Below, piece after piece: positions 192 to 37,809 of a stretch of 44,784 bases of DNA. Position 1 is the stretch's first letter. The number at the start of each line of letters is the position of its first letter. Source of the DNA: Escherichia phage TL-2011b; the sequence record JQ011317. The stretch is one strand, 5' to 3'. Made by a program: the position numbers and the translations under genes. The notes beneath the pieces are model-generated. The model was not told where the DNA came from, made no database searches, and saw only the letters and a program-made list of their open reading frames with translations.

Positions 192-1439
192 GTGCTTACC
201 GATACAAAATTAAAAAACCTCAAGCCGCAGGACAAACTGTACAAGGTCTCCGATCGTGACGGGCTGTATGTAGCTGTGCTTACGTCAGGCACGGTCTCGT
301 TTCGCTATGACTACCGTATCAACGGTCGCCGCGAAACACTGGTAATCGGGCAGTATGGGCGTGACGGTATCAGCCTGGCAGAAGCGCGAGAAGAACTGAT
401 TGCTGCAAAGAAGCTGCTTAAAGCAGGCCAGTCACCGGCTGCGGCTAAACGTGACGGTATCAAAAAGATTCGTGGTGCCGAGACGTTTGCGGTACATACC
501 GACAGTTATATGAAACATGTCATCCTGGCTGACAGTACCCGCGCAATGAAGCAGGCGGTGATCGACCGTGACATACTTCCGGTTCTTGGCAACAAAATGA
601 TGACTGAAATTACCACATCGATGGTTCGTGATTTGTGTGACCGGATTGTCGAACGCGGTGGTCGGGCAACAGCAGTGCAGGCCAGGGAGATCATCAGCAG
701 CGTATACCGTCACGCCAATGACCGTGGTCATGGTTTGTTTAATCCTGCGGCTGACATTAAACCTTCGTCTATCGCCATATTTAAACCACGAGAGCGAACA
801 CTGACACCAGAAGAAATTGGCCTGTTCTTCCGCACGCTGGATGCCATTGGTGCTATGGGCACTATGAAAATGGCTTTAAAGCTGGTGCTTATCACTATGG
901 TTCGTAAAGGCGAATTCACCAATGCAACGTGGGACGAAATAGATTTTAAAAAATGGACATGGACAATTCCTTCAGACCGCATGAAGGGAAGCCGGGCGCA
1001 TGTTATTTACCTGCCTAAACAGGCACAGGATATATTGGTCGGGTTGCAGATGTACGCTGGTGGAAGTGAATATCTGGTTCCTGGTCGTTACAACTTCCGG
1101 AAGCCATTATCTAATGCCGCGCTGAACTCTCTGATCGACAGAACGGTGAAAATAATAAATGAAGATGGTGAGCATATTCAGGACTTCACCGTACATGATA
1201 TGCGCCGTACAGCCAGTACGTTGTTGCATGAGGCTGGTTATCCTTCAGACTGGATTGAAAAGGCTCTGGCACATGAGCAGAAAGGTGTGCGCGCCGTATA
1301 TAACAAAGCGGAATACGCCAGACAGCGCGCCTACATGTTGCAGCAGTGGGCCGATATGATTGATTCCTGGATTGACGGGGAGCATACGGATCTGATTCCG
1401 TTCTCCCCGTCGAAGTTTGAGAAGTGGATGGCGGGATAA
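192..1439 (+). CDS. int: Tyrosine recombinase / phage integrase (P4-type)
   Basis: 415-aa ORF, GTG start after in-frame stop; C-terminal catalytic signature (HDMRRT ... VRAVYNKAEY); N-terminal arm-binding-type domain. Confidence 0.9.
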   Translation: MLTDTKLKNLKPQDKLYKVSDRDGLYVAVLTSGTVSFRYDYRINGRRETLVIGQYGRDGISLAEAREELIAAKKLLKAGQSPAAAKRDGIKKIRGAETFAVHTDSYMKHVILADSTRAMKQAVIDRDILPVLGNKMMTEITTSMVRDLCDRIVERGGRATAVQAREIISSVYRHANDRGHGLFNPAADIKPSSIAIFKPRERTLTPEEIGLFFRTLDAIGAMGTMKMALKLVLITMVRKGEFTNATWDEIDFKKWTWTIPSDRMKGSRAHVIYLPKQAQDILVGLQMYAGGSEYLVPGRYNFRKPLSNAALNSLIDRTVKIINEDGEHIQDFTVHDMRRTASTLLHEAGYPSDWIEKALAHEQKGVRAVYNKAEYARQRAYMLQQWADMIDSWIDGEHTDLIPFSPSKFEKWMAG

Positions 1440-5305: not shown

Positions 5306-5890
5306 TTATTGTTTGCTTTTTTCGTTCTGGCTGATGACAAATTCAATGTAACTTTCGATCTTTGCCTTCTCTGTTTCAGGTAACAATGCGTAGCGCGAGC
5401 GGTCATAGTTGATAGTTGCAGGGTCATGCGGGTGAATCAGTAGTTCATATCCGTGACGCCCGAATGCTGATGCAACATTCTCCAGGGTGGAAATGGAAAC
5501 GCTGACCTCATTGTTTAACAGGCGGCTAATTGTCACCTGGGCGACGCCGGATGCGCGGTGAAGTTTTCCCTGTGTTGAAAGGTCGCGGCTTTCGCTCATC
5601 CAGCGTTCCAGGTTGTGAGCCGCCAGCTGACCAATGTCGCTTGGTCCGACAGGCTGAACCCCCTCCTGAGAAAGCGAGCGATCGATATCAAGCCAGTTAC
5701 GGGGTTTATTGGCGGCAGCTTCAATTTTTCGCGCAACCTGGTCGCCGATAACCTTCTTGCCAAGAGCCCAGCGGTTTACCAGATTTGCCTGAGTTCCAAG
5801 TTTTTCTGCCATCCGCGTCTGAACACCATTGAATTCACGGTCGATCAAGTCGTTGAGATTTTGCCTGCGGACGTCCTGGATACTTTTCAT
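5306..5890 (-). CDS. Prophage repressor (CI-like), two HTH domains, no S24 peptidase domain
   Basis: 194 aa; divergent from the cro-like gene across a 154-bp operator region; two HTH-like segments; no Ser/Lys autocleavage module; no Shine-Dalgarno before ATG. Confidence 0.6.
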   Translation of the reverse strand: MKSIQDVRRQNLNDLIDREFNGVQTRMAEKLGTQANLVNRWALGKKVIGDQVARKIEAAANKPRNWLDIDRSLSQEGVQPVGPSDIGQLAAHNLERWMSESRDLSTQGKLHRASGVAQVTISRLLNNEVSVSISTLENVASAFGRHGYELLIHPHDPATINYDRSRYALLPETEKAKIESYIEFVISQNEKSKQ

Positions 5891-14419: not shown

Positions 14420-14496
14420 TGGCGTGGCATGCAGGATTCGAACCTGCGACCAACCGCTTAGAAGGCGGTTGCTCTGTCCAACTGAGCTAATGCCAC
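14420..14496 (-). tRNA. tRNA-Arg (anticodon UCU)
   Basis: 77-nt cloverleaf folded by hand: acceptor GTGGCAT/ATGCCAC, D-stem GCTC/GAGC, anticodon stem ACCGC/GCGGT with loop CTTCTAA, T-arm GCAGG-TTCGAATC-CCTGC, encoded CCA. Confidence 0.85.
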
Positions 14497-29852: not shown

Positions 29853-30416
29853 TTAGCATGATTCAGGGGAAACCCCAATATTAAATATGAGTGACTCCCC
29901 TGAATCAGCATAATAATGTAATATTATTGACTTACGTTGTTTTCTTGCTTCGTAGAATAAACGCTCTTGCGGCGATAATTTGTGAAAACTGCCGGATGCA
30001 CAATATATGTTTTTTAACTTTTCGCGGGTTTCTTTTATTGTATCTTCTGATATGTATTTTAGGTATTTATCCGTATAGATGTTGCTACTATAAGAAATTA
30101 ATGTTTTGCTGTTGTTGTGATGTATTGTATTTTTATCGTTGAAGTCTGTATTTTTATTTACTGTCATTAGGTTTTTAATGATTACATGTAATACAATAGT
30201 CTCCCCATCATCAATTCCATATTTGATGTCATAGTCAGTATATTTATTTGTTATACCGCTTCCTGATAGCGGCACTATGTACTCTGAGAAAAATGAGTTT
30301 GCCGCGTGACCATCAAGAGCAATAGCAGTTTTTTTGTGGTAAAAATAAAACAATATTGAGAGAGTCAAAATAATAGCGACGCCTAATGCAACCTTTAATA
30401 TAGATATGGTTTTCAA
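29853..30416 (-). CDS. Membrane-anchored protein, low GC; candidate superinfection-exclusion protein
   Basis: TTG start at 30416 with AAGGAG Shine-Dalgarno (alternative ATG 30443); N-terminal TM helix; same strand and position as sieA next to mnt in P22. Confidence 0.45.
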   Translation of the reverse strand: MKTISILKVALGVAIILTLSILFYFYHKKTAIALDGHAANSFFSEYIVPLSGSGITNKYTDYDIKYGIDDGETIVLHVIIKNLMTVNKNTDFNDKNTIHHNNSKTLISYSSNIYTDKYLKYISEDTIKETREKLKNIYCASGSFHKLSPQERLFYEARKQRKSIILHYYADSGESLIFNIGVSPESC

Positions 30417-30506
30417 AATATCGCTCCTTGTTGTAACATACATCAGTAATGTGGCGTTTTTCAATTGTATTAAAGACGTGTAATATGTACACGCCTTTTG
30501 TTCTTC

Positions 30507-30939
30507 CTATTCAGGTATTTCAATTCCAAAACCATCTGCATCCCATGAGTTTTCACAGATGATGTAACCTAGTTCATTGAGCTTATTAAATGTTTTTTCA
30601 AAGATGATCTGGTAATCATTATCTGCAAGTGATTCCAGTTCAAGGTCATTAAGGTTTATATAAAAACTTGTATGTCCAAGTGTTATTTTCTTATTAATTT
30701 CATTAAAGGTTCTTTTGAAAATAATATTTGATATTTCATGTCGTGCATTGTTTGCAATAATTTTTGCTTCATAAGCAGAAATTACGTCATCTTCATGAAT
30801 ATCTTTCAGAAAGCTGGTGTCAAGACGTTGTACTATTTCAGCGTTCATTGATCGCTTATTGGCTTTTGCAGAAATTTCTATTTTTTCTTTTACTTCAACG
30901 GGAAGTCTGATCCCTTAGTTGTGGATCTTCTCTGCTCAT
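30507..30939 (-). pseudogene. Mnt-like ribbon-helix-helix repressor gene with apparent +1 frameshift
   Basis: ATG at 30939 encodes MSREDPQL then stops; the downstream frame continues GIRLPVEVKEKIEISAKANKRSMNAEIVQRL, matching P22 Mnt (MARDDPHFNFRMPMEVREKLKFRAEANGRSMNSELLQIV); one extra base near 30915. Confidence 0.55.
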
Positions 30940-31299: not shown

Positions 31300-32244
31300 A
31301 TGACGAGTATAGCAACAGCGGTATCTACTATCAACGTGCCATTCCACGGCGCAGAGCTTTATGTTGTCAATCATAACGGCGAACCATACACCCCAATGAA
31401 ACCAGTCGTTGAAGGTATGGGGCTGGACTGGAAAACGCAGTTCCGCAAGTTGCAACAACGCTTTAAGAGCTGCATGGTCGAAATGACCATTCAGCTCCCC
31501 GGTGATACTCAGCGTCGTCTGGTTATCTGTCTTGCTTTACGCAAACTTGCAGGTTGGCTGCAAACCATCAGCCCTAACAAAGTCCGCCCTGAAATCCGCG
31601 ACAAGGTAATCCAGTATCAGGAAGAGTGTGACGATGTGCTCTACGAGTACTGGACTAAAGGCCATGTGGTTAACCCACGCAAAGCTAAAAAGGCGTTGCC
31701 GGGTAAAATAACAACTGAACAGCAGGAAGCCATTAAACAACTCGTCATGAGTCGCGGTCAGTCTCTGCCAAAAGAAAAACAGGCTAAGGCGATGATCACC
31801 ATGTGGTCGTCACTGAAATCTCATTTTGGCTGTTCGTACAAAGAAATTGGTGAAGATCAATTTGCCGAAGCGTTGTCTCTTGTTGCTCGGGTTCCGCTTG
31901 AAGGGGAGTATCTCCCTGCTGGATCTGCATCAGAGAATGATGAAGTGGCAGTCAAGATGTTAGATGCGCTTCGTGAGGCAATTAAAACACAGACAAAATG
32001 TTATGGTTATCCATTGAAGCCCGGCTACCGCAGTCTGATTCATTCTCCGTCTGGTGTTCTCGGTCTGACGGAGAACTCACTGCTGATGAATCTGCTGAAC
32101 CAGTTACAGGAAGACGGGCACGATGTATCGGGCGCGGCGGCGGAGCTGACCACCATGTTCTGTTACATCGTTGGTGTGAGCAAATGCCTGCGTGATATCC
32201 AGACGCACGCGGAGTACATCAACGACAAGGCAGGGTTCTTCTGA
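31300..32244 (+). CDS. Anti-repressor (Ant) family protein 1
   Basis: 314 aa; N-terminal antirepressor-type domain (INVPFHGAELYVVNHNGEPY); C-terminal 77 aa identical to the second Ant protein. Confidence 0.65.
   Translation: MTSIATAVSTINVPFHGAELYVVNHNGEPYTPMKPVVEGMGLDWKTQFRKLQQRFKSCMVEMTIQLPGDTQRRLVICLALRKLAGWLQTISPNKVRPEIRDKVIQYQEECDDVLYEYWTKGHVVNPRKAKKALPGKITTEQQEAIKQLVMSRGQSLPKEKQAKAMITMWSSLKSHFGCSYKEIGEDQFAEALSLVARVPLEGEYLPAGSASENDEVAVKMLDALREAIKTQTKCYGYPLKPGYRSLIHSPSGVLGLTENSLLMNLLNQLQEDGHDVSGAAAELTTMFCYIVGVSKCLRDIQTHAEYINDKAGFF
32008..32244. repeat. Inverted repeat arm A (3' end of ant1)
   Basis: Reverse complement is about 97% identical to 33420-33656 (3 mismatches in the first 84 bp compared by hand). 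Confidence 0.7.
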
Positions 32245-32281
32245 CGGGCGGCGGCACAGGGATGTGCAAAACGAAACTATC

Positions 32282-32574: not shown

Positions 32575-33118
32575 ATTCCTTCCATTTATCAGAAAAAAGA
32601 TCTTCTTCTAAAGGCATTGGTTCTGTTTTTGTTTTCTCAAAGAATTGATAACTGATAGTGATTGCTTCCTCTTTAAACTCTTCTTGCTCAGTTATGTTGT
32701 GAGCATCTGCGTCAACAAAAAACATAACCAGCGCATCACGATTGTGATTTACCGAATAAACTAAAAAGCAATCACTTGTTGGTATGCATTTTACTTGTAC
32801 AGACGCTATATTTTTCCATGCATCCCAAGATGATTTTTTACCAGTGTGTTTTTTATCACTATCTTCTGGAATATAGTCTTGGTTATCGACATGAGTATGC
32901 CTGACATTTAGTTTAAGCATTTCTGTCGGACGAGCAAATGCAGCATCTTTACCAAGAGATGGATGGTATCCCGTTTTCCAATACTGGGTAAAGGCATCAG
33001 ATACTTTCTTCAGCTCAAGATCAGATGCACAAAGGGCCGAGAAATTTTGCGTATGCAACACTCGACCCTTATATCTGACAACTTGATTTTTATCATTCTG
33101 CGACGCAGACGAACTCAT
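32573..33118 (-). CDS. Putative toxin, YafO-like (181 aa)
   Basis: ATG at 33118; blocks LGKDAAF, LNVRHTHVDN, CFLVYSVNH resemble YafO toxins as recalled; overlaps a small upstream ORF by 26 nt. Confidence 0.4.
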   Translation of the reverse strand: MSSSASQNDKNQVVRYKGRVLHTQNFSALCASDLELKKVSDAFTQYWKTGYHPSLGKDAAFARPTEMLKLNVRHTHVDNQDYIPEDSDKKHTGKKSSWDAWKNIASVQVKCIPTSDCFLVYSVNHNRDALVMFFVDADAHNITEQEEFKEEAITISYQFFEKTKTEPMPLEEDLFSDKWKE

Positions 33119-33272
33119 AATTTTCCTTATTGTTACGAGAATCAAAGAAAGCGCGGGATACGCGACTTGCGTGATCTTTTGTCATAGTAACTTTTACGTA
33201 CTCTACGCTTCCATTGAAAGAACGTCTTGCGGCAGCTTGCGCTCTACGCATCTGCAATTTTTCGTTTCGCAT
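33093..33272 (-). CDS. Small basic protein (59 aa), putative antitoxin/regulator
   Basis: ATG at 33272 with GAGGT Shine-Dalgarno 6 nt upstream; below the ORF-track cutoff; TTACC-N5-GGTAA site 61 bp upstream. Confidence 0.4.
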   Translation of the reverse strand: MRNEKLQMRRAQAAARRSFNGSVEYVKVTMTKDHASRVSRAFFDSRNNKENYEFVCVAE

Positions 33273-33332: not shown

Positions 33333-33347
33333 TTACCCTTGAGGTAA
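33333..33347. promoter_or_regulatory. TTACC-N5-GGTAA site in the promoter of the toxin-antitoxin-like operon
   Basis: TTACCCTTGAGGTAA. Confidence 0.45.
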
Positions 33348-33419
33348 TAGTACGCTATTCACCCACAGTCTGCAATCTGTACAGAATTATTTAAAGGCAC
33401 ATCCCTGTGCCGCCGCCCG

Positions 33420-33656
33420 TCAGAAGAACCCTGCTTTGTCGTTGATGTACTCCGCGTGCGTCTGGATATCACGCAGGCATTTGCTCACACCGACGATGTA
33501 GCAGAACATGGTGGTCAGCTCCGCCGCCGCGCCCGATACGTCGTGCCCGTCTTCCTGTAACTGGTTCAGCAGATTCATCAGCAGTGAGTTCTCCGTCAGG
33601 CCGAGAACACCAGACGGCGAGTGAATCAGGCTGCGGTAGCCTGGCTTCAGCGGGGC
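33420..33656. repeat. Inverted repeat arm B (3' end of ant2)
   Basis: See arm A at 32008-32244. Confidence 0.7.
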
Positions 33657-34115
33657 GCTGTAGGTTTTGTTCTCTATCTTCATCGCCTGCATCACTGCTG
33701 ACGCCGTGGCGTTGGCTACCTGGTCGGCAACCATCTTTATGCGTTCTTCCTGCGGGAGCGAGTTTTTAATGTAACTTCCGGTGCGGCGGATCTGAGGAAG
33801 AACCTCACCTGTAACCCATTTACGAAAGCGGTAGGGGATAGTGCCTGGTGTCACCGCATCGCGGCAGCGGAGGATCAGTGTGTAGAGGCCTGACTCGGAG
33901 ATGATGATCGATTCTTGCTCACCGCCAGGGGTGTCGGTTGAAGCGACGCCCTTCTCATCATCATCAAGTTTTCGAACAGCATCTCGATGGTTTGCTATGC
34001 CTATAGCCCGACAAACATCTGAAGCGATAAACCATGGCTCACCATTAATGACGATTACCCGTATATCGGCTTGGGATTCGAAAGAAAAAATGGACGTGCT
34101 TTTTGTAGCTGTCAT
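33420..34115 (-). CDS. Anti-repressor (Ant/Bro-N) family protein 2
   Basis: 231 aa; Bro-N-like N-terminus (VIVINGEPWFIASDVCRAIGI); C-terminal 77 aa identical to ant1. Confidence 0.7.
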   Translation of the reverse strand: MTATKSTSIFSFESQADIRVIVINGEPWFIASDVCRAIGIANHRDAVRKLDDDEKGVASTDTPGGEQESIIISESGLYTLILRCRDAVTPGTIPYRFRKWVTGEVLPQIRRTGSYIKNSLPQEERIKMVADQVANATASAVMQAMKIENKTYSAPLKPGYRSLIHSPSGVLGLTENSLLMNLLNQLQEDGHDVSGAAAELTTMFCYIVGVSKCLRDIQTHAEYINDKAGFF

Positions 34116-34384
34116 AGTGGTTACCTTTTAGTCTGGTTAATCACCACTACCGACGCCAATCGGTTGGTGGTGAACTGTGCAGGGTTGGCGTAACCGGCTA
34201 AAAGGACCCGGCGCACCTTTCGGTGCCCCCACACAGCCCACCATAATACGAATGTGGCCGTGCTATACGCATAAAAAAACCGCTTGCGCGGTGAATGCGC
34301 CTTTTAGTAATCCGGGACGCCAATCCCGGCACTGGATTTTTCCAGTGCCCGATTACTATGGCACAAGAGGAGTGCGATGTAAAT

Positions 34385-34492
34385 TTACCGCAAAGGTAAT
34401 GATAAGCGCGGGGATATATAAAAATCAACCGTATTTGGTTGGTGGCGTTTAACGCTTGATCACCTGAAAGCAAGATATTACCTTTAAGGTAA
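34385..34492. promoter_or_regulatory. Two TTACC-N5-GGTAA sites in the 400-bp noncoding region upstream of ant2 and the zinc-ribbon membrane protein gene
   Basis: TTACCGCAAAGGTAA (34385-34399) and TTACCTTTAAGGTAA (34478-34492). Confidence 0.45.
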
Positions 34493-34512
34493 TGTTATTG
34501 TGAGGAAAAGCA

Positions 34513-35241
34513 ATGGAAGTTTTCTGGATAGTTGTTGGTGTGGTTGCGGTGATTATTTACGTTATCAACCAGAACAAGACTAAGATCTCTGATCGTACGG
34601 TCGTTAATCATAACAAAACGATAAAGACCGAAGATGGGGAGATAACGATTAATCGTACACAGGTGATAGAACACACCTCTACTCAGTTTCAAAAAACTGG
34701 AGGTAATGCGCCTAATATTTCCGCACCTCCTGCTTATGATAGTGCGGTAATCCAGACATATTATAAACAGCAGGAGTTAGCAAAAGAGAGGCAACTGATT
34801 CAGCCAAAGCCATTTACAGCAGAGCTTCCACCTGGAGTGTCAACGCGTCCGGCATATCATGGAAGATTCCCTGGTGATGACGTATCGTCTCAGTCACCTA
34901 AAAAAGCACCTCAGGCAGTATCAGAGCCAGCAAGAATACCTTCTGTATCGCCGTCAAAAGAAGAATCAGCTAACGAAGTTTCAAGTGCCCGCAAGCAGTG
35001 TTTGCGATGCAGAATAAACCTTCCATATGAAAAATTCAGGAAATCGTCAAAAAATCCAGATGGATTGACTAAGTGGTGTGCAAGGTGTCTCGATGGCCCA
35101 AAGAATACACGTCATATGAAGTGGTGCCCAATTTGTAATGTCCGCAGAAAACGAACCAGCTTTTACCCTAATAATCAAAATGCGGATGGCTTAATGGCAT
35201 GGTGCAAAACGTGCTGGGACGAGCACAAAGCGAAACGATAG
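34513..35241 (+). CDS. Membrane-anchored protein with two C-terminal Cys4 zinc-ribbon repeats
   Basis: N-terminal TM helix, Pro/Ser-rich linker, two repeats of C-x2-C ... DGL-x3-WC-x2-C. Confidence 0.5.
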   Translation: MEVFWIVVGVVAVIIYVINQNKTKISDRTVVNHNKTIKTEDGEITINRTQVIEHTSTQFQKTGGNAPNISAPPAYDSAVIQTYYKQQELAKERQLIQPKPFTAELPPGVSTRPAYHGRFPGDDVSSQSPKKAPQAVSEPARIPSVSPSKEESANEVSSARKQCLRCRINLPYEKFRKSSKNPDGLTKWCARCLDGPKNTRHMKWCPICNVRRKRTSFYPNNQNADGLMAWCKTCWDEHKAKR

Positions 35242-35264
35242 GCCGCTCTTGCGGCCTTTTCTTT
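35241..35264. terminator. Terminator shared by convergent genes
   Basis: Stem GGCCGC / GCGGCC, loop TCTT, then TTTTCTTT. Confidence 0.55.
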
Positions 35265-35520
35265 ATGTGGTTTGTTTTCGTAGTTGTTCGGCACAATAGT
35301 CGAGATGTGTTTGCAGATCCTGCATAGACATCTGTGAGCTGGTGACGTAGTTAATCAGTGCAGTCAGTTCGGCAAGTGGGCCATCGACATTAAATCCATC
35401 CTTATCGAGATCCCGGAGTAATTTCATCAAGTGCGATCCCTCCACCAGTGATCTGACGCCTCCCGGCGTGTGAATCCTTTCGGTAAATCCGTCTTCCAGT
35501 GGATAGTGATACTGCTGCAT
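35263..35520 (-). CDS. Stand-alone Ant C-terminal-domain protein (85 aa); candidate LexA-controlled antirepressor (Tum-like)
   Basis: ATG at 35520 with GGAGAAG Shine-Dalgarno; diverged homologue of the C-terminal domain shared by both Ant proteins; LexA box 20 bp upstream. Confidence 0.55.
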   Translation of the reverse strand: MQQYHYPLEDGFTERIHTPGGVRSLVEGSHLMKLLRDLDKDGFNVDGPLAELTALINYVTSSQMSMQDLQTHLDYCAEQLRKQTT

Positions 35521-35538: not shown

Positions 35539-35560
35539 TAACTGTATAAATATACAGTAG
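35539..35560. promoter_or_regulatory. LexA (SOS) box
   Basis: AACTGTATAAATATACAGTA: CTGT-N8-ACAG with AT-rich spacer, close to the LexA consensus. Confidence 0.75.
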
Positions 35561-35715: not shown

Positions 35716-37809
35716 ATGACGGTCTCAACCGAAGTTGACCACAACGAATACACCGGTAACGGTGTTACAACGACATTCCCTTATACCTTCAGGATTTTCC
35801 AGAAATCTGATTTAGTAGTGCAGGTTGTTGACCTGAACGAGAACATCACAGAGCTGATTCTTGACACTGATTACATAGTTACTGGGGCTGGAGGATACAA
35901 TGGTGGCAATATAATTCTGTCGAAGGCATTGGTTAGCGGTTATCTGATTTCTATATCACGAGAGCTCCCGGTTACGCAGGAAACTGATTTGCGTAATCAG
36001 GGTAAGTTCTTTGCAGAAGTGCATGAGGATGCTTTTGATAAGCTAACGATGCTGATCCAGCAGGTTCGAAGTTGGTTTAGCTTGGCGCTGCGTAAGCCGT
36101 CATTCGTGGCAAATTATTATGATGCGCTTAACAATTACATCAGAAACTTACGCGATCCTTCAACCCCCCAAGATGCAGCCACTAAAAATTATGTTGATAC
36201 ACAGCTCAGTTCTAACCTGGGGTGTACTTTGCGCGTTCAGGAGCAGATACCGCAACTTCCTGATGCTGCCTCCCGCGCAAACAAGATGCCTGCTTTCGAT
36301 AACGATGGTAACCCTATTGTTGTGCTTCCTCCATCAGGGTCTGCGTCTGACGTATTGATCGAGCTAGCCAAGCCAACTGGATCTGACTTGGTTGGTTATG
36401 GGTCACAGACGGTTAAAGCAACCCTTGATAGCCTGAATAGCATGCGGGAGGAGCTTCTTGATAAAACAGGATTTAATGCGCTGGGGCGCTTCCTTAATCT
36501 TTCAGAGCTTCGCTCCTGTGTTCCGGAGGAGGCAGGGCAGATTGTATACGTAGCATCAGCAGCTAGCACTACACATGCTGAAAACCACCTTGGTGGCGGC
36601 TTTTTCGAGTCTGTTGATAACATTCAGGCGTGGGCTGATGATGGTGGAATTGTAATCAAGCCAGAAACTGGAACGATGGTATGGAGACGAATTAATTTTA
36701 CCACTTACGACATGCAATTTTGGGGGGTGAAACCTGACGGAGTCACAGATAACGCAACAGCTATAACTCTTGCAACTAACTTTGCTCGCTCAAACAAATG
36801 CATTCTAGAGGCTCCTGCTGGAAACATAAATACATCAAAAACAATCCCAATTTATGACAATATGGGAATTAGAGGACAGGGAAAGGCTGAAGCGACAGTT
36901 TTTTATAAAACAACAAATGACAAAATAGATCTCACAAAAAATGGAGAAGTAATTCTTCAGGTGGATGCATTATGTGCTTTTATACCAAAGCAATGGGATC
37001 TAACAGATAACTCAATTAGTTCATTTTGTGTTAACGGTAGAGTTGAAAACTGCATGTTTAGAAGGCTTGGCTTAACACAAGAAAATGTAGATTCTTATAG
37101 AAATTATTACGGACTGTTTTTAGGAAAATCAGCAGCACCAGTTATCAGACAGTCAATTTTTGAATGTGCTTATATCGGATGCTTCTCTTATGTGCCGTTC
37201 TCTGGCGTAATGGAAATGGTCGGTTTCCCACAATATCCAGGGAAAGGATATGCTGGAGTTTTGTTTGAAGATTTTAGGGATGGTCAAATAAAAGTAATTG
37301 GCACTTCTATGGATATGCGCCTTGTTCAAGTTAATGGTTACCAGTTGTCATTTAGAATGTCCGGGATGCAATATACTACCATGACCAATTGTACAGCTGA
37401 AAACTGCACGCCAATGGATGGGGAATCAACTTGCTACGCATTTGATTTTGTAAATCCGTATTGCATTGTCATGAATACTTGTGCAACAGAATTTGTTAAA
37501 GGGGGGCAATTGCGTGTTAGCGTTCAGGGAAACCCATCATTCCGCCCATCTATTATTGTCAATGGCTTTCTACCAATTGACCAACAAAGTCCAGTAGTGC
37601 AAACACCTATAATTGATATTGACAATGGTGGTGTTGTTGAAATGAGTGTCATATTGAATGGTGGTGATTGGGCAATAAATCCATCGGCTGTAAATTTAAC
37701 TTCTCCAAAAGCAAGTGGTAATGGGTTGAAGGTAAGATTGATCGGTGTAAATGGCTCTCCTTCTTCGGTGTGGAGTGCGTCTTCTGGTGCAGAAGTAAGG
37801 GAGTTCTAA
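35716..37809 (+). CDS. Tailspike / tail fiber protein
   Basis: 697 aa; N-terminal virion-attachment-type domain followed by a long beta-rich C-terminal region; GGAGA Shine-Dalgarno. Confidence 0.65.
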   Translation: MTVSTEVDHNEYTGNGVTTTFPYTFRIFQKSDLVVQVVDLNENITELILDTDYIVTGAGGYNGGNIILSKALVSGYLISISRELPVTQETDLRNQGKFFAEVHEDAFDKLTMLIQQVRSWFSLALRKPSFVANYYDALNNYIRNLRDPSTPQDAATKNYVDTQLSSNLGCTLRVQEQIPQLPDAASRANKMPAFDNDGNPIVVLPPSGSASDVLIELAKPTGSDLVGYGSQTVKATLDSLNSMREELLDKTGFNALGRFLNLSELRSCVPEEAGQIVYVASAASTTHAENHLGGGFFESVDNIQAWADDGGIVIKPETGTMVWRRINFTTYDMQFWGVKPDGVTDNATAITLATNFARSNKCILEAPAGNINTSKTIPIYDNMGIRGQGKAEATVFYKTTNDKIDLTKNGEVILQVDALCAFIPKQWDLTDNSISSFCVNGRVENCMFRRLGLTQENVDSYRNYYGLFLGKSAAPVIRQSIFECAYIGCFSYVPFSGVMEMVGFPQYPGKGYAGVLFEDFRDGQIKVIGTSMDMRLVQVNGYQLSFRMSGMQYTTMTNCTAENCTPMDGESTCYAFDFVNPYCIVMNTCATEFVKGGQLRVSVQGNPSFRPSIIVNGFLPIDQQSPVVQTPIIDIDNGGVVEMSVILNGGDWAINPSAVNLTSPKASGNGLKVRLIGVNGSPSSVWSASSGAEVREF

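Follow-up and report, generated by a model that had tools for sequence, protein, structure and literature searches.

In phage P1 the sim (superimmunity) genes are divergent from and adjoin the C1-controlled c4-icd-ant operon, and Sim is a secreted, processed protein. The reference map of phage P22 reads gene 16 → / ← sieA ← orf59a ← mnt / arc → ant → gene 9. SieA is polytopic, with a cytoplasmic FxRYPxEAxxFNK motif and without zinc ribbons (PMC10883804). Here we describe a gene of Escherichia phage TL-2011b that invites comparison with these exclusion loci. The window, that is, the whole stretch of 44,784 nucleotides (nt) that was analyzed (JQ011317), is an epsilon15/phiV10-like (Uetakevirus) E. 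coli prophage integrated at guaA, and the gene, at positions 34513-35241, belongs to the accessory stretch that separates the ejection genes from the tailspike. The data favour a bitopic inner-membrane product, predicted to expose a flexible, very basic, nuclease-type twin zinc ribbon to the cytoplasm. With a probability of roughly 40%, we propose that the protein is a membrane-tethered exclusion factor that binds DNA or the ejection conduit and is made when the repressor is absent.

With a putative promoter and a terminator of its own, the gene forms a self-contained accessory unit, or moron, in temperate podoviruses of the epsilon15 type. The PHROG 6762 profile matched the product end to end (residues 1-242 against positions 1-242 of 242, E = 1.1e-148); this family is without an assigned function in PHROG, and RefSeq E. 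coli genomes label the product as a hypothetical protein. Because phiV10 and epsilon15 are without a counterpart at the same junction, the gene is an insertion. The whole locus was found in 129 of 5426 complete E. coli genomes. Homologues formed 33 clusters at 90% identity, with members in Escherichia, Superficieibacter, Citrobacter, Enterobacter, Salmonella, Serratia, Providencia, Pectobacterium and Buttiauxella, and further members were found in Yersinia phages YeP4-6 and Aeromonas phage phiARM81mr; PHROG 6762 is a sparse Enterobacterales/Aeromonas phage family. NCBIfam gave no usable match for the 242-residue protein, and no well-characterised family with a housekeeping role in phages claimed it.

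The alignment of homologues shows four modules: a conserved hydrophobic N-terminus, a conserved segment at about residues 21-58, a variable linker and two ribbons (Table 1). AlphaFold2 was confident on the transmembrane helix and on residues 160-242 (predicted local distance difference test, pLDDT, >90) and not elsewhere. The N-terminal transmembrane helix and the long Pro/Ser-rich linker, both named in the original prediction from the sequence of this stretch, were borne out by the list of open reading frames (ORFs), the structure model and the composition of the linker (Pro 14%, Ser 13%, Ala 11%), which differs in length and sequence among homologues. In the juxtamembrane segment N21, T39 and G42 are invariant, and many further positions are at least 90% conserved. 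All eight ribbon cysteines are invariant across 29-30 homologues of several genera, as are K161, D183, G184 and W188 of ribbon 1. The two ribbons are identical at 12 of 35 positions and follow the motif C-x2-C...F...DGL-x2-WC-x2-C; the tandem Cys4 repeat had thus been described correctly except for the spacing between DGL and WC, which is x2 and not x3. A model of the ribbons alone reached a mean pLDDT of 88.8, and its predicted fold is a beta zinc ribbon.

The helix is preceded by Met-Glu without a basic n-region and followed by a charge of +2 to +4, and in each of the 29 homologues the last 88 residues have a net charge of +9 to +17. According to the positive-inside rule, the charges flanking the helix point to an N-out/C-in topology, which would leave a two-residue N-terminus in the periplasm and the ribbons in the cytoplasm. 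Such an anchor would also suit zinc-bound cysteines, and with this predicted topology the anatomy proposed earlier, a membrane-anchored cytoplasmic twin ribbon in a prophage accessory region, holds. In the opposite orientation (N-in/C-out) the C-terminal domain would be periplasmic, its eight cysteines would form disulfides, and the protein would act in the periplasm like Sim and Cor-type proteins. Many exclusion proteins do work in the envelope, and in two phages (L013 and L091) the gene downstream of the homologue encodes a signal-peptide-like N-terminus. However, the missing positive n-region and the positive charges after the helix and in the C-terminal domain argue against this orientation, and zinc sites are favoured both by the way in which the CxxC motifs pair and by homology to ribbons of cytoplasmic nucleases, so that we regard this orientation as far-fetched.

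The original prediction did not recognise the family, and no well-characterised housekeeping family does claim the protein; the type of ribbon, however, is recognisable. Pfam Stc1 (PF12898) matched residues 159-193, over ribbon 1, with 21.2 bits against a gathering cut-off of 24.8 (E = 4.5e-4), that is, below threshold, and the alignment covered the second half of the profile alone (50-83). Sub-threshold Stc1 matches were obtained for 24 of 29 homologues, and the protein has eight conserved cysteines in two CxxC...CxxC units, as in Stc1. In a profile search against PDB sequences, ribbon 1 also matched the N-terminal Zn motif of PacI weakly (E = 0.077). Ribbon 2 resembles the N-terminal ribbons of phage endonuclease VII/HNH proteins, and in phage PHROGs 1035, 2633 and 2255 (endonuclease VII/HNH) the ribbon is an N-terminal appendage. 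A tblastn search with the ribbon returned 274 phage records, many of them, among the matches listed, annotated as HNH or endonuclease VII, and BFVD gave 38 viral matches at E ≤ 1e-3, many labelled as nucleases, 'Stc1 domain' or Zn-finger proteins. The exhaustive profile search collected 1836 representative proteins at E ≤ 1e-3. About 50 of them have the layout of a transmembrane segment, a linker and two ribbons; the remainder are soluble arrays of 3-12 ribbons, some fused to superfamily 1 or 2 (SF1/SF2) helicases, HEAT repeats or winged helices and some carrying restriction-type ATPases, and these soluble multi-ribbon relatives exceed the Pfam Stc1 threshold (56-61 bits). Comparisons of the full-length model with PDB by Foldseek found nothing significant (best E = 1.5), and phmmer with the ribbon domain against PDB sequences found RING-finger noise alone. 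Judged from these matches, the ribbons are of the Stc1-like accessory type that stands N-terminal to the catalytic domain in phage HNH/endonuclease VII nucleases.

Pfam HNH and Endonuclease_7 did not match the 242-residue protein even at E ≤ 10, and it has no catalytic motif. We considered whether each ribbon might itself be a decayed HNH active site and rejected this: in Arthrobacter phage MargaretKali gp1 the homologous ribbon KTCSKCGVAKPLSDFYKHKSNADGRFGSCKAC is followed by a helical spacer and then by a separate catalytic CAVC...DHDH...CWNCN unit, and the general-base and metal-ligand residues are unconserved in the homologues of the 242-residue protein. A phage HNH nickase without such a ribbon shows weaker activity and relaxed site recognition (PMC3592412). 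This deletion effect, the association of the ribbon with nucleases and the C-terminal charge of the homologues together suggest that the ribbon domain is a nucleic-acid-binding module.

The same features bear on the anti-sigma-like regulator that the original prediction had offered, for which no specific support was found. Acting like an anti-sigma factor or an anti-antirepressor, such a protein would use its membrane-anchored ribbons to hold a soluble regulator (the repressor, an antirepressor, a sigma factor, a protease adaptor) and would thereby tune the lysis-lysogeny switch. An H-x3-C-x2-C string is present (H201-C205-C208), but it lies in predicted beta strands and not in the helical domain that defines zinc-binding anti-sigma factors (ZAS); the predicted fold of the whole region is a beta zinc ribbon, and no anti-sigma Pfam family matched even at E ≤ 10. 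The extreme positive charge favours a nucleic-acid ligand, and the co-location with antirepressor genes is also explained by a moron hot spot between ejection genes and tailspike, a place where P22 and P1 carry exclusion genes. We consider sequestration improbable.

The TTACC-N5-GGTAA site assigned earlier to the promoter is real. Its core (34478-34492) lies inside a perfect 17-bp palindrome, ATTACCTTTAAGGTAAT, and the motif occurs 14 times in the window against 0.6 expected (at most one mismatch), 10 of the sites being exact. Paired sites flank the repressor gene (5172/5234 and 5946/5994), like O_L and O_R, and others precede the integrase (135), the second early unit (8227/8289), the terminase (11590/11608) and the portal gene (14819). 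In the accessory region there are sites at 33333, 34385, 34478 and 35597 (15 nt each), of which the one at 34385-34399 is a second site upstream of the gene. In the epsilon15 record NC_004775, ATTACC-N5-GGTAAT sites are annotated 'protein_bind: repressor, lysogeny', and phiV10 has 14 sites of this sequence. We infer that the site at 34477-34493 is an operator, bound by the phage's own repressor to repress the gene. The repressor gene of the window encodes two helix-turn-helix domains and no S24 peptidase domain, and it resembles in type the ORF21 repressor of phage vB_EcoP_ZX5, which has been tested experimentally, by overexpression but not by operator mapping (PMC9782041). Pairs of sites are often spaced 62 bp, and palindromes precede nearly every transcription unit. 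This distribution suggests that the repressor silences each unit directly and not through a cascade; with two helix-turn-helix domains, a single chain might read one palindrome as a monomer.

Since the palindrome begins 16 nt past TTGATC, the sole plausible -10 element is its left half-site, TACCTT, which retains T1, A2 and T6. The consensus promoter scan missed this promoter because the -10 fits 3 of 6 positions. The TTGAnn-N16-operator layout is also found upstream of the Serratia homologue, in two further IMG/VR contigs, and in Superficieibacter and the Citrobacter/Enterobacter/Salmonella group (60-63% identical homologues), where it follows an upstream terminator. The conservation of this layout argues for a separate transcription unit that has been put on purpose under the control of the resident repressor. 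As the operator overlaps the putative -10, the gene of epsilon15-like phages is probably silent in the lysogen and would be switched on by infection or induction.

The promoter region is not the same throughout the family. The Providencia homologue has a different palindrome, TTAACC-N5-GGTTAA, at the same position. A scan of IMG/VR for this sequence found, among the matches listed, mostly unrelated contigs and one triple cluster (L172), before an XRE/ImmA-like pair in a phage with no demonstrated copy of the gene; no link to a heteroimmune repressor was established. Two more distant homologues are connected in another way: in phiARM81mr the homologue starts 19 bp after cI, and in the P22-like contig L013 it starts 12 bp after mnt. 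These positions imply expression in lysogens, and therefore no single expression regime in the family. In Superficieibacter L066 and the loci of the 60-63% identical homologues from the Citrobacter/Enterobacter/Salmonella group (L066-L072), another perfect palindrome, TGTGACATGTCACA (TGTGACGTGTCACG in L069), lies about 60-75 nt before the start codon of the homologue, just upstream of the -35 element. It has CRP-like half-sites, but with a spacer of 4 nt instead of 6 nt, and is absent from the window.

The genomic neighbourhoods of the homologues were determined in a synteny census of IMG/VR and Logan contigs, a scan of genome contigs having returned 2 loci only. The census comprised 27 diverse loci, 24 of which allowed the gene to be located on the ORF map. 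Of these 24 loci, 13 have the homologue convergent with the last ejection-protein gene and separated from it by no more than one short ORF, exactly as sieA lies in P22. Homologues usually lie downstream of or adjoin Bro-N, KilA-N/ANT, pRha or P22_AR_N antirepressor genes, and the PHROG annotation of the neighbouring genes is 'unknown function' throughout. The SieA-type location, between ejection genes and tailspike in a short-tailed temperate phage, is shared by the window and most homologous loci. Contig L013 reproduces the P22 immI map, with the homologue replacing orf59a/sieA downstream of mnt. Members are also found in a myovirus-like prophage and in a small island that carries a CI-like repressor and resolvases, a spread that fits a mobile moron.

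The gene directly downstream of the homologue in L013 (3330-4193, plus strand) and L091 (6645-7073, plus strand) belongs to PHROG 8772. From the signal-peptide-like N-terminus its products are probably secreted, and the L013 protein ends, in addition, with a hydrophobic segment in its C-terminal part. The downstream gene may provide a partner that acts in the envelope, or it may simply be one more moron in the slot.

Occupation of the slots of P22 sieA, P1 sim and lambda rex strengthens the exclusion or defence role put forward in the original prediction, although not as a constitutive prophage defence, as in epsilon15-like phages the gene is probably off in the lysogen. If the protein is an exclusion factor, its gene would be transcribed when the repressor is absent, just after infection or induction, alongside the divergent antirepressor operon. 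The product would be anchored in the inner membrane by the transmembrane helix, followed by the juxtamembrane hairpin and a flexible tether of 60-100 residues that carries the basic ribbons in the cytoplasm. There the ribbons would seize the incoming DNA end of a competing phage or the cytoplasmic side of its ejection-protein conduit, so that genome entry would stall, giving superinfection exclusion at the cytoplasmic face of the inner membrane.

Several points weigh against exclusion. Classical sie genes are expressed from the prophage, and the operator over the -10 implies that the gene of epsilon15-like phages is off in the lysogen; homologues behind cI or mnt, by contrast, would be expressed from the prophage, and timing thus differs within the family. 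From genus to genus the ribbon domain hardly varies, which fits a constant target (DNA or a host protein) better than fast-evolving ejection proteins, and the ribbons of Stc1 serve protein binding. No defence-protein model of PADLOC-DB 2.0 matched the 242-residue protein at E ≤ 0.01, and BLASTP against P22 SieA gave E = 0.23 over 7 residues, that is, no similarity. In mosaic phage genomes positional analogy is weak evidence, and the argument from the slot does not apply to the myovirus-like prophage and the island. Among these points, the exclusion model has most difficulty with two: the ribbons scarcely vary, and expression does not follow one regime. The more specific proposal, that exclusion by a repressor-controlled tethered ribbon during establishment or lytic growth, and not in the resting lysogen, constitutes a new mechanistic class, appears unlikely.

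Near-invariance across genera is what would be expected for a generic DNA ligand, and it is accommodated if the protein tethers DNA to the membrane early in the lytic cycle, either to organise replication or packaging, like p16.7 of phi29, or to displace the host nucleoid, like Ndd of T4. p16.7 of the Bacillus phage phi29 is expressed early; it begins with a membrane anchor and ends in a nucleic-acid-binding module, with a spacer in between, a layout that the 242-residue protein shares. The very basic, nuclease-associated ribbons and the early-lytic expression without repressor that is implied by the operator over the -10 are also in accordance with such a tether. However, the gene is dispensable, being absent from phiV10, epsilon15 and most relatives and complete only in the minority of E. 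coli genomes counted above; two phages co-transcribe the homologue with the lysogeny genes cI and mnt, which misfits a purely lytic role, and the gene lies among immunity- and exclusion-type morons and not among replication genes. A DNA tether of this kind seems to us rather unlikely.

The neighbouring morons raise another explanation, in which the protein is the sensor, anchor or nuclease recruiter of an abortive-infection or toxic system, or is itself toxic to the host on induction, like Kil. Relatives of the ribbon are fused to SF1/SF2 helicases, restriction-type ATPases and nucleases, a YafO-like toxin ORF and another ORF that weakly matches a TIR-like protein are among the neighbouring morons, and repressor-controlled early prophage genes are often toxic to the host. 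The 242-residue protein itself, however, has no catalytic or effector domain and no PADLOC match, and no partner gene is conserved across the loci, which makes this explanation very improbable. The exclusion reading is the one that we favour, at the probability given above.

Table 1. Features of the gene at 34513-35241 and of its surroundings in the window
Feature	Position	Strand	Basis or remark
Coding sequence, 242 residues, PHROG 6762 family	34513..35241 (stop codon included)	+	ORF list
Putative sigma-70 promoter (-35 TTGATC 34456-34461, 17-nt spacer, -10 TACCTT 34479-34484)	34456..34484	+	inferred
Putative epsilon15-type repressor operator, perfect 17-bp palindrome	34477..34493	.	motif enrichment; epsilon15 annotation
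Shine-Dalgarno GAGG	34502..34505	+	read off the sequence, ahead of ATG
N-terminal transmembrane anchor, about residues 3-20, VFWIVVGVVAVIIYVINQ	34519..34572	+	AlphaFold2 helix 3-22, pLDDT ~90; kept in all full-length homologues
Juxtamembrane segment, residues 21-58, predicted beta-hairpin	34573..34686	+	conservation; AlphaFold2 strands 29-39 and 42-52, low confidence
Pro/Ser/Ala/Gln-rich tether, residues 59-158	34687..34986	+	composition; pLDDT <50
Zinc ribbon 1, residues 161-195, Cys163/166/189/192	34993..35097	+	invariant Cys; pLDDT >90
Zinc ribbon 2, residues 203-237, Cys205/208/231/234	35119..35223	+	invariant Cys; most conserved stretch of the protein
Intrinsic terminator, AGGCCGC-TCTT-GCGGCCT and T run	35240..35267 (stem-loop 35240-35257)	+	terminator scan
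Integrase gene	192-1439		
Repressor gene	5306-5890	-	two helix-turn-helix domains, YdaS-like 20-60 and HTH_3 105-146; no S24 peptidase domain
Cro-like gene	6045		
tRNA-Arg gene (anticodon TCT)	14420-14496	-	between terminase and portal genes
P22_AR_N antirepressor	31300-32244	+	
YafO-like toxin ORF, 190 residues	32573-33145	-	Pfam 26.2 bits
Bro-N antirepressor	33420-34115	-	
C4 antisense RNA (RF01695)	34163-34248	-	Rfam 77.7 bits, cut-off 45
isrK-type RNA (RF01394)	34273-34348	-	Rfam 76.7 bits, cut-off 50
a1/b1 target element	34309-34361	-	Rfam, just under cut-off
gp19-like gene, 85 residues	35263-35520	-	homologous to epsilon15 gp19 and phiV10 p24
Tailspike gene	35716-37809		

After the Cro-like gene the window carries replication genes, terminase, portal, capsid, three large ejection/internal proteins (to 29841), tailspike, an O-antigen acyltransferase and lysis genes. 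Most of the 400 bp upstream of the gene is the leader of the divergent Bro-N antirepressor operon. The original prediction had overlooked this leader, as well as the second site at 34385-34399 and the conserved juxtamembrane segment. The C4 RNA, the isrK-type RNA and the a1/b1 element (34163-34361, minus strand) are a P1-type immI leader of the Bro-N antirepressor, and similar immI leaders were found in about 300 phage records, many of which are Stx phages. The predicted Bro-N promoter (-35 at 34428-34423, -10 at 34404-34399) abuts the second operator, and it stands back to back with the promoter of the gene.

On the other side of the gene, a perfect LexA box, CTGTATAAATATACAG (35542-35557), precedes the gp19-like gene and is conserved in phiV10 and epsilon15. 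The 85-residue product resembles the C-terminal ~80 residues of both large antirepressors and has a weak anti-repressor PHROG match. The gene likely encodes a small antirepressor under SOS control, as would fit a repressor without a self-cleavage domain. The near-identical C-terminal domains of the P22_AR_N and Bro-N antirepressors also appear as a 292-nt inverted repeat (31976-32267 and 33397-33688, 91% complementary), and, counting the 85-residue gene, this domain is present three times in 4 kb. The YafO-like ORF overlaps a 59-residue ORF (33093-33272), where the related E. coli prophage L001 has one coding sequence of 210 residues; the copy in the window may be frameshifted, or the two loci may differ. 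Two morons on the minus strand, 29853-30464 and 30507-30848, adjoin the last ejection-protein gene and belong to PHROGs 8033 and 1388, to which no function is assigned. The product of 29853-30464 has one hydrophobic segment and a very weak TIR-like (ThsB) match in PADLOC (E = 0.006), and its homologue lies directly downstream of the homologue of the 34513-35241 gene in Superficieibacter L066.

If the protein is an exclusion factor, it would be a second, unrelated occupant of the sieA slot in short-tailed temperate phages, and its action from the cytoplasmic side through a DNA-binding-type module, with lytic-phase timing, would widen the known blocks of phage genome entry. It would also give a role to a ribbon module found in ~1,800 protein clusters, the first for a Stc1-like ribbon outside nucleases. 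Whatever the function, the locus illustrates a way in which accessory genes become part of the repressor regulon in epsilon15-like phages, namely with the operator built into the -10 element.

Among known systems, SieA of P22 shares the position: its gene, too, runs convergently towards the ejection genes and adjoins the immI module for antirepressor control, and each of the two genes is an independent transcription unit for a small inner-membrane protein. The 242-residue protein differs in having a single predicted transmembrane helix, and it shows neither the homology nor the topology nor the motif of the SieA family; SieA is expressed from the prophage, whereas the present gene has a putative repressor operator over its -10. 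The sim genes of P1 stand to their C1-controlled operon as the gene stands to the C4/isrK-Bro-N operon, but Sim is not homologous, and the large domain of the 242-residue protein is predicted to be cytoplasmic. In phiARM81mr, the place of the homologue behind cI is a slot like that of lambda rex. p16.7 of phi29 is likewise without homology to the protein, with a helical dimeric DNA-binding domain that serves the replication programme of a lytic phage.

For the ribbons themselves, the closest described relatives are those of phage HNH/endonuclease VII proteins (MargaretKali gp1, PacI), with the same motif, C-x2-C-x8-10-F/Y-x5-8-DG-x4-C-x2-C, and the same fold; in the 242-residue protein the ribbon is duplicated, tethered to the membrane and without the catalytic beta-beta-alpha-Me domain. 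With the tandem zinc finger of Stc1, a soluble eukaryotic adaptor that binds Argonaute, the protein has in common the eight cysteines in two CxxC...CxxC units. Our search of the literature for the Stc1 domain in phages or for zinc-ribbon exclusion proteins of prophages found none. The protein family and the membrane-tethered, nuclease-free use of the ribbon are undescribed, while a moron in the immI/sie slot follows a familiar genomic logic.

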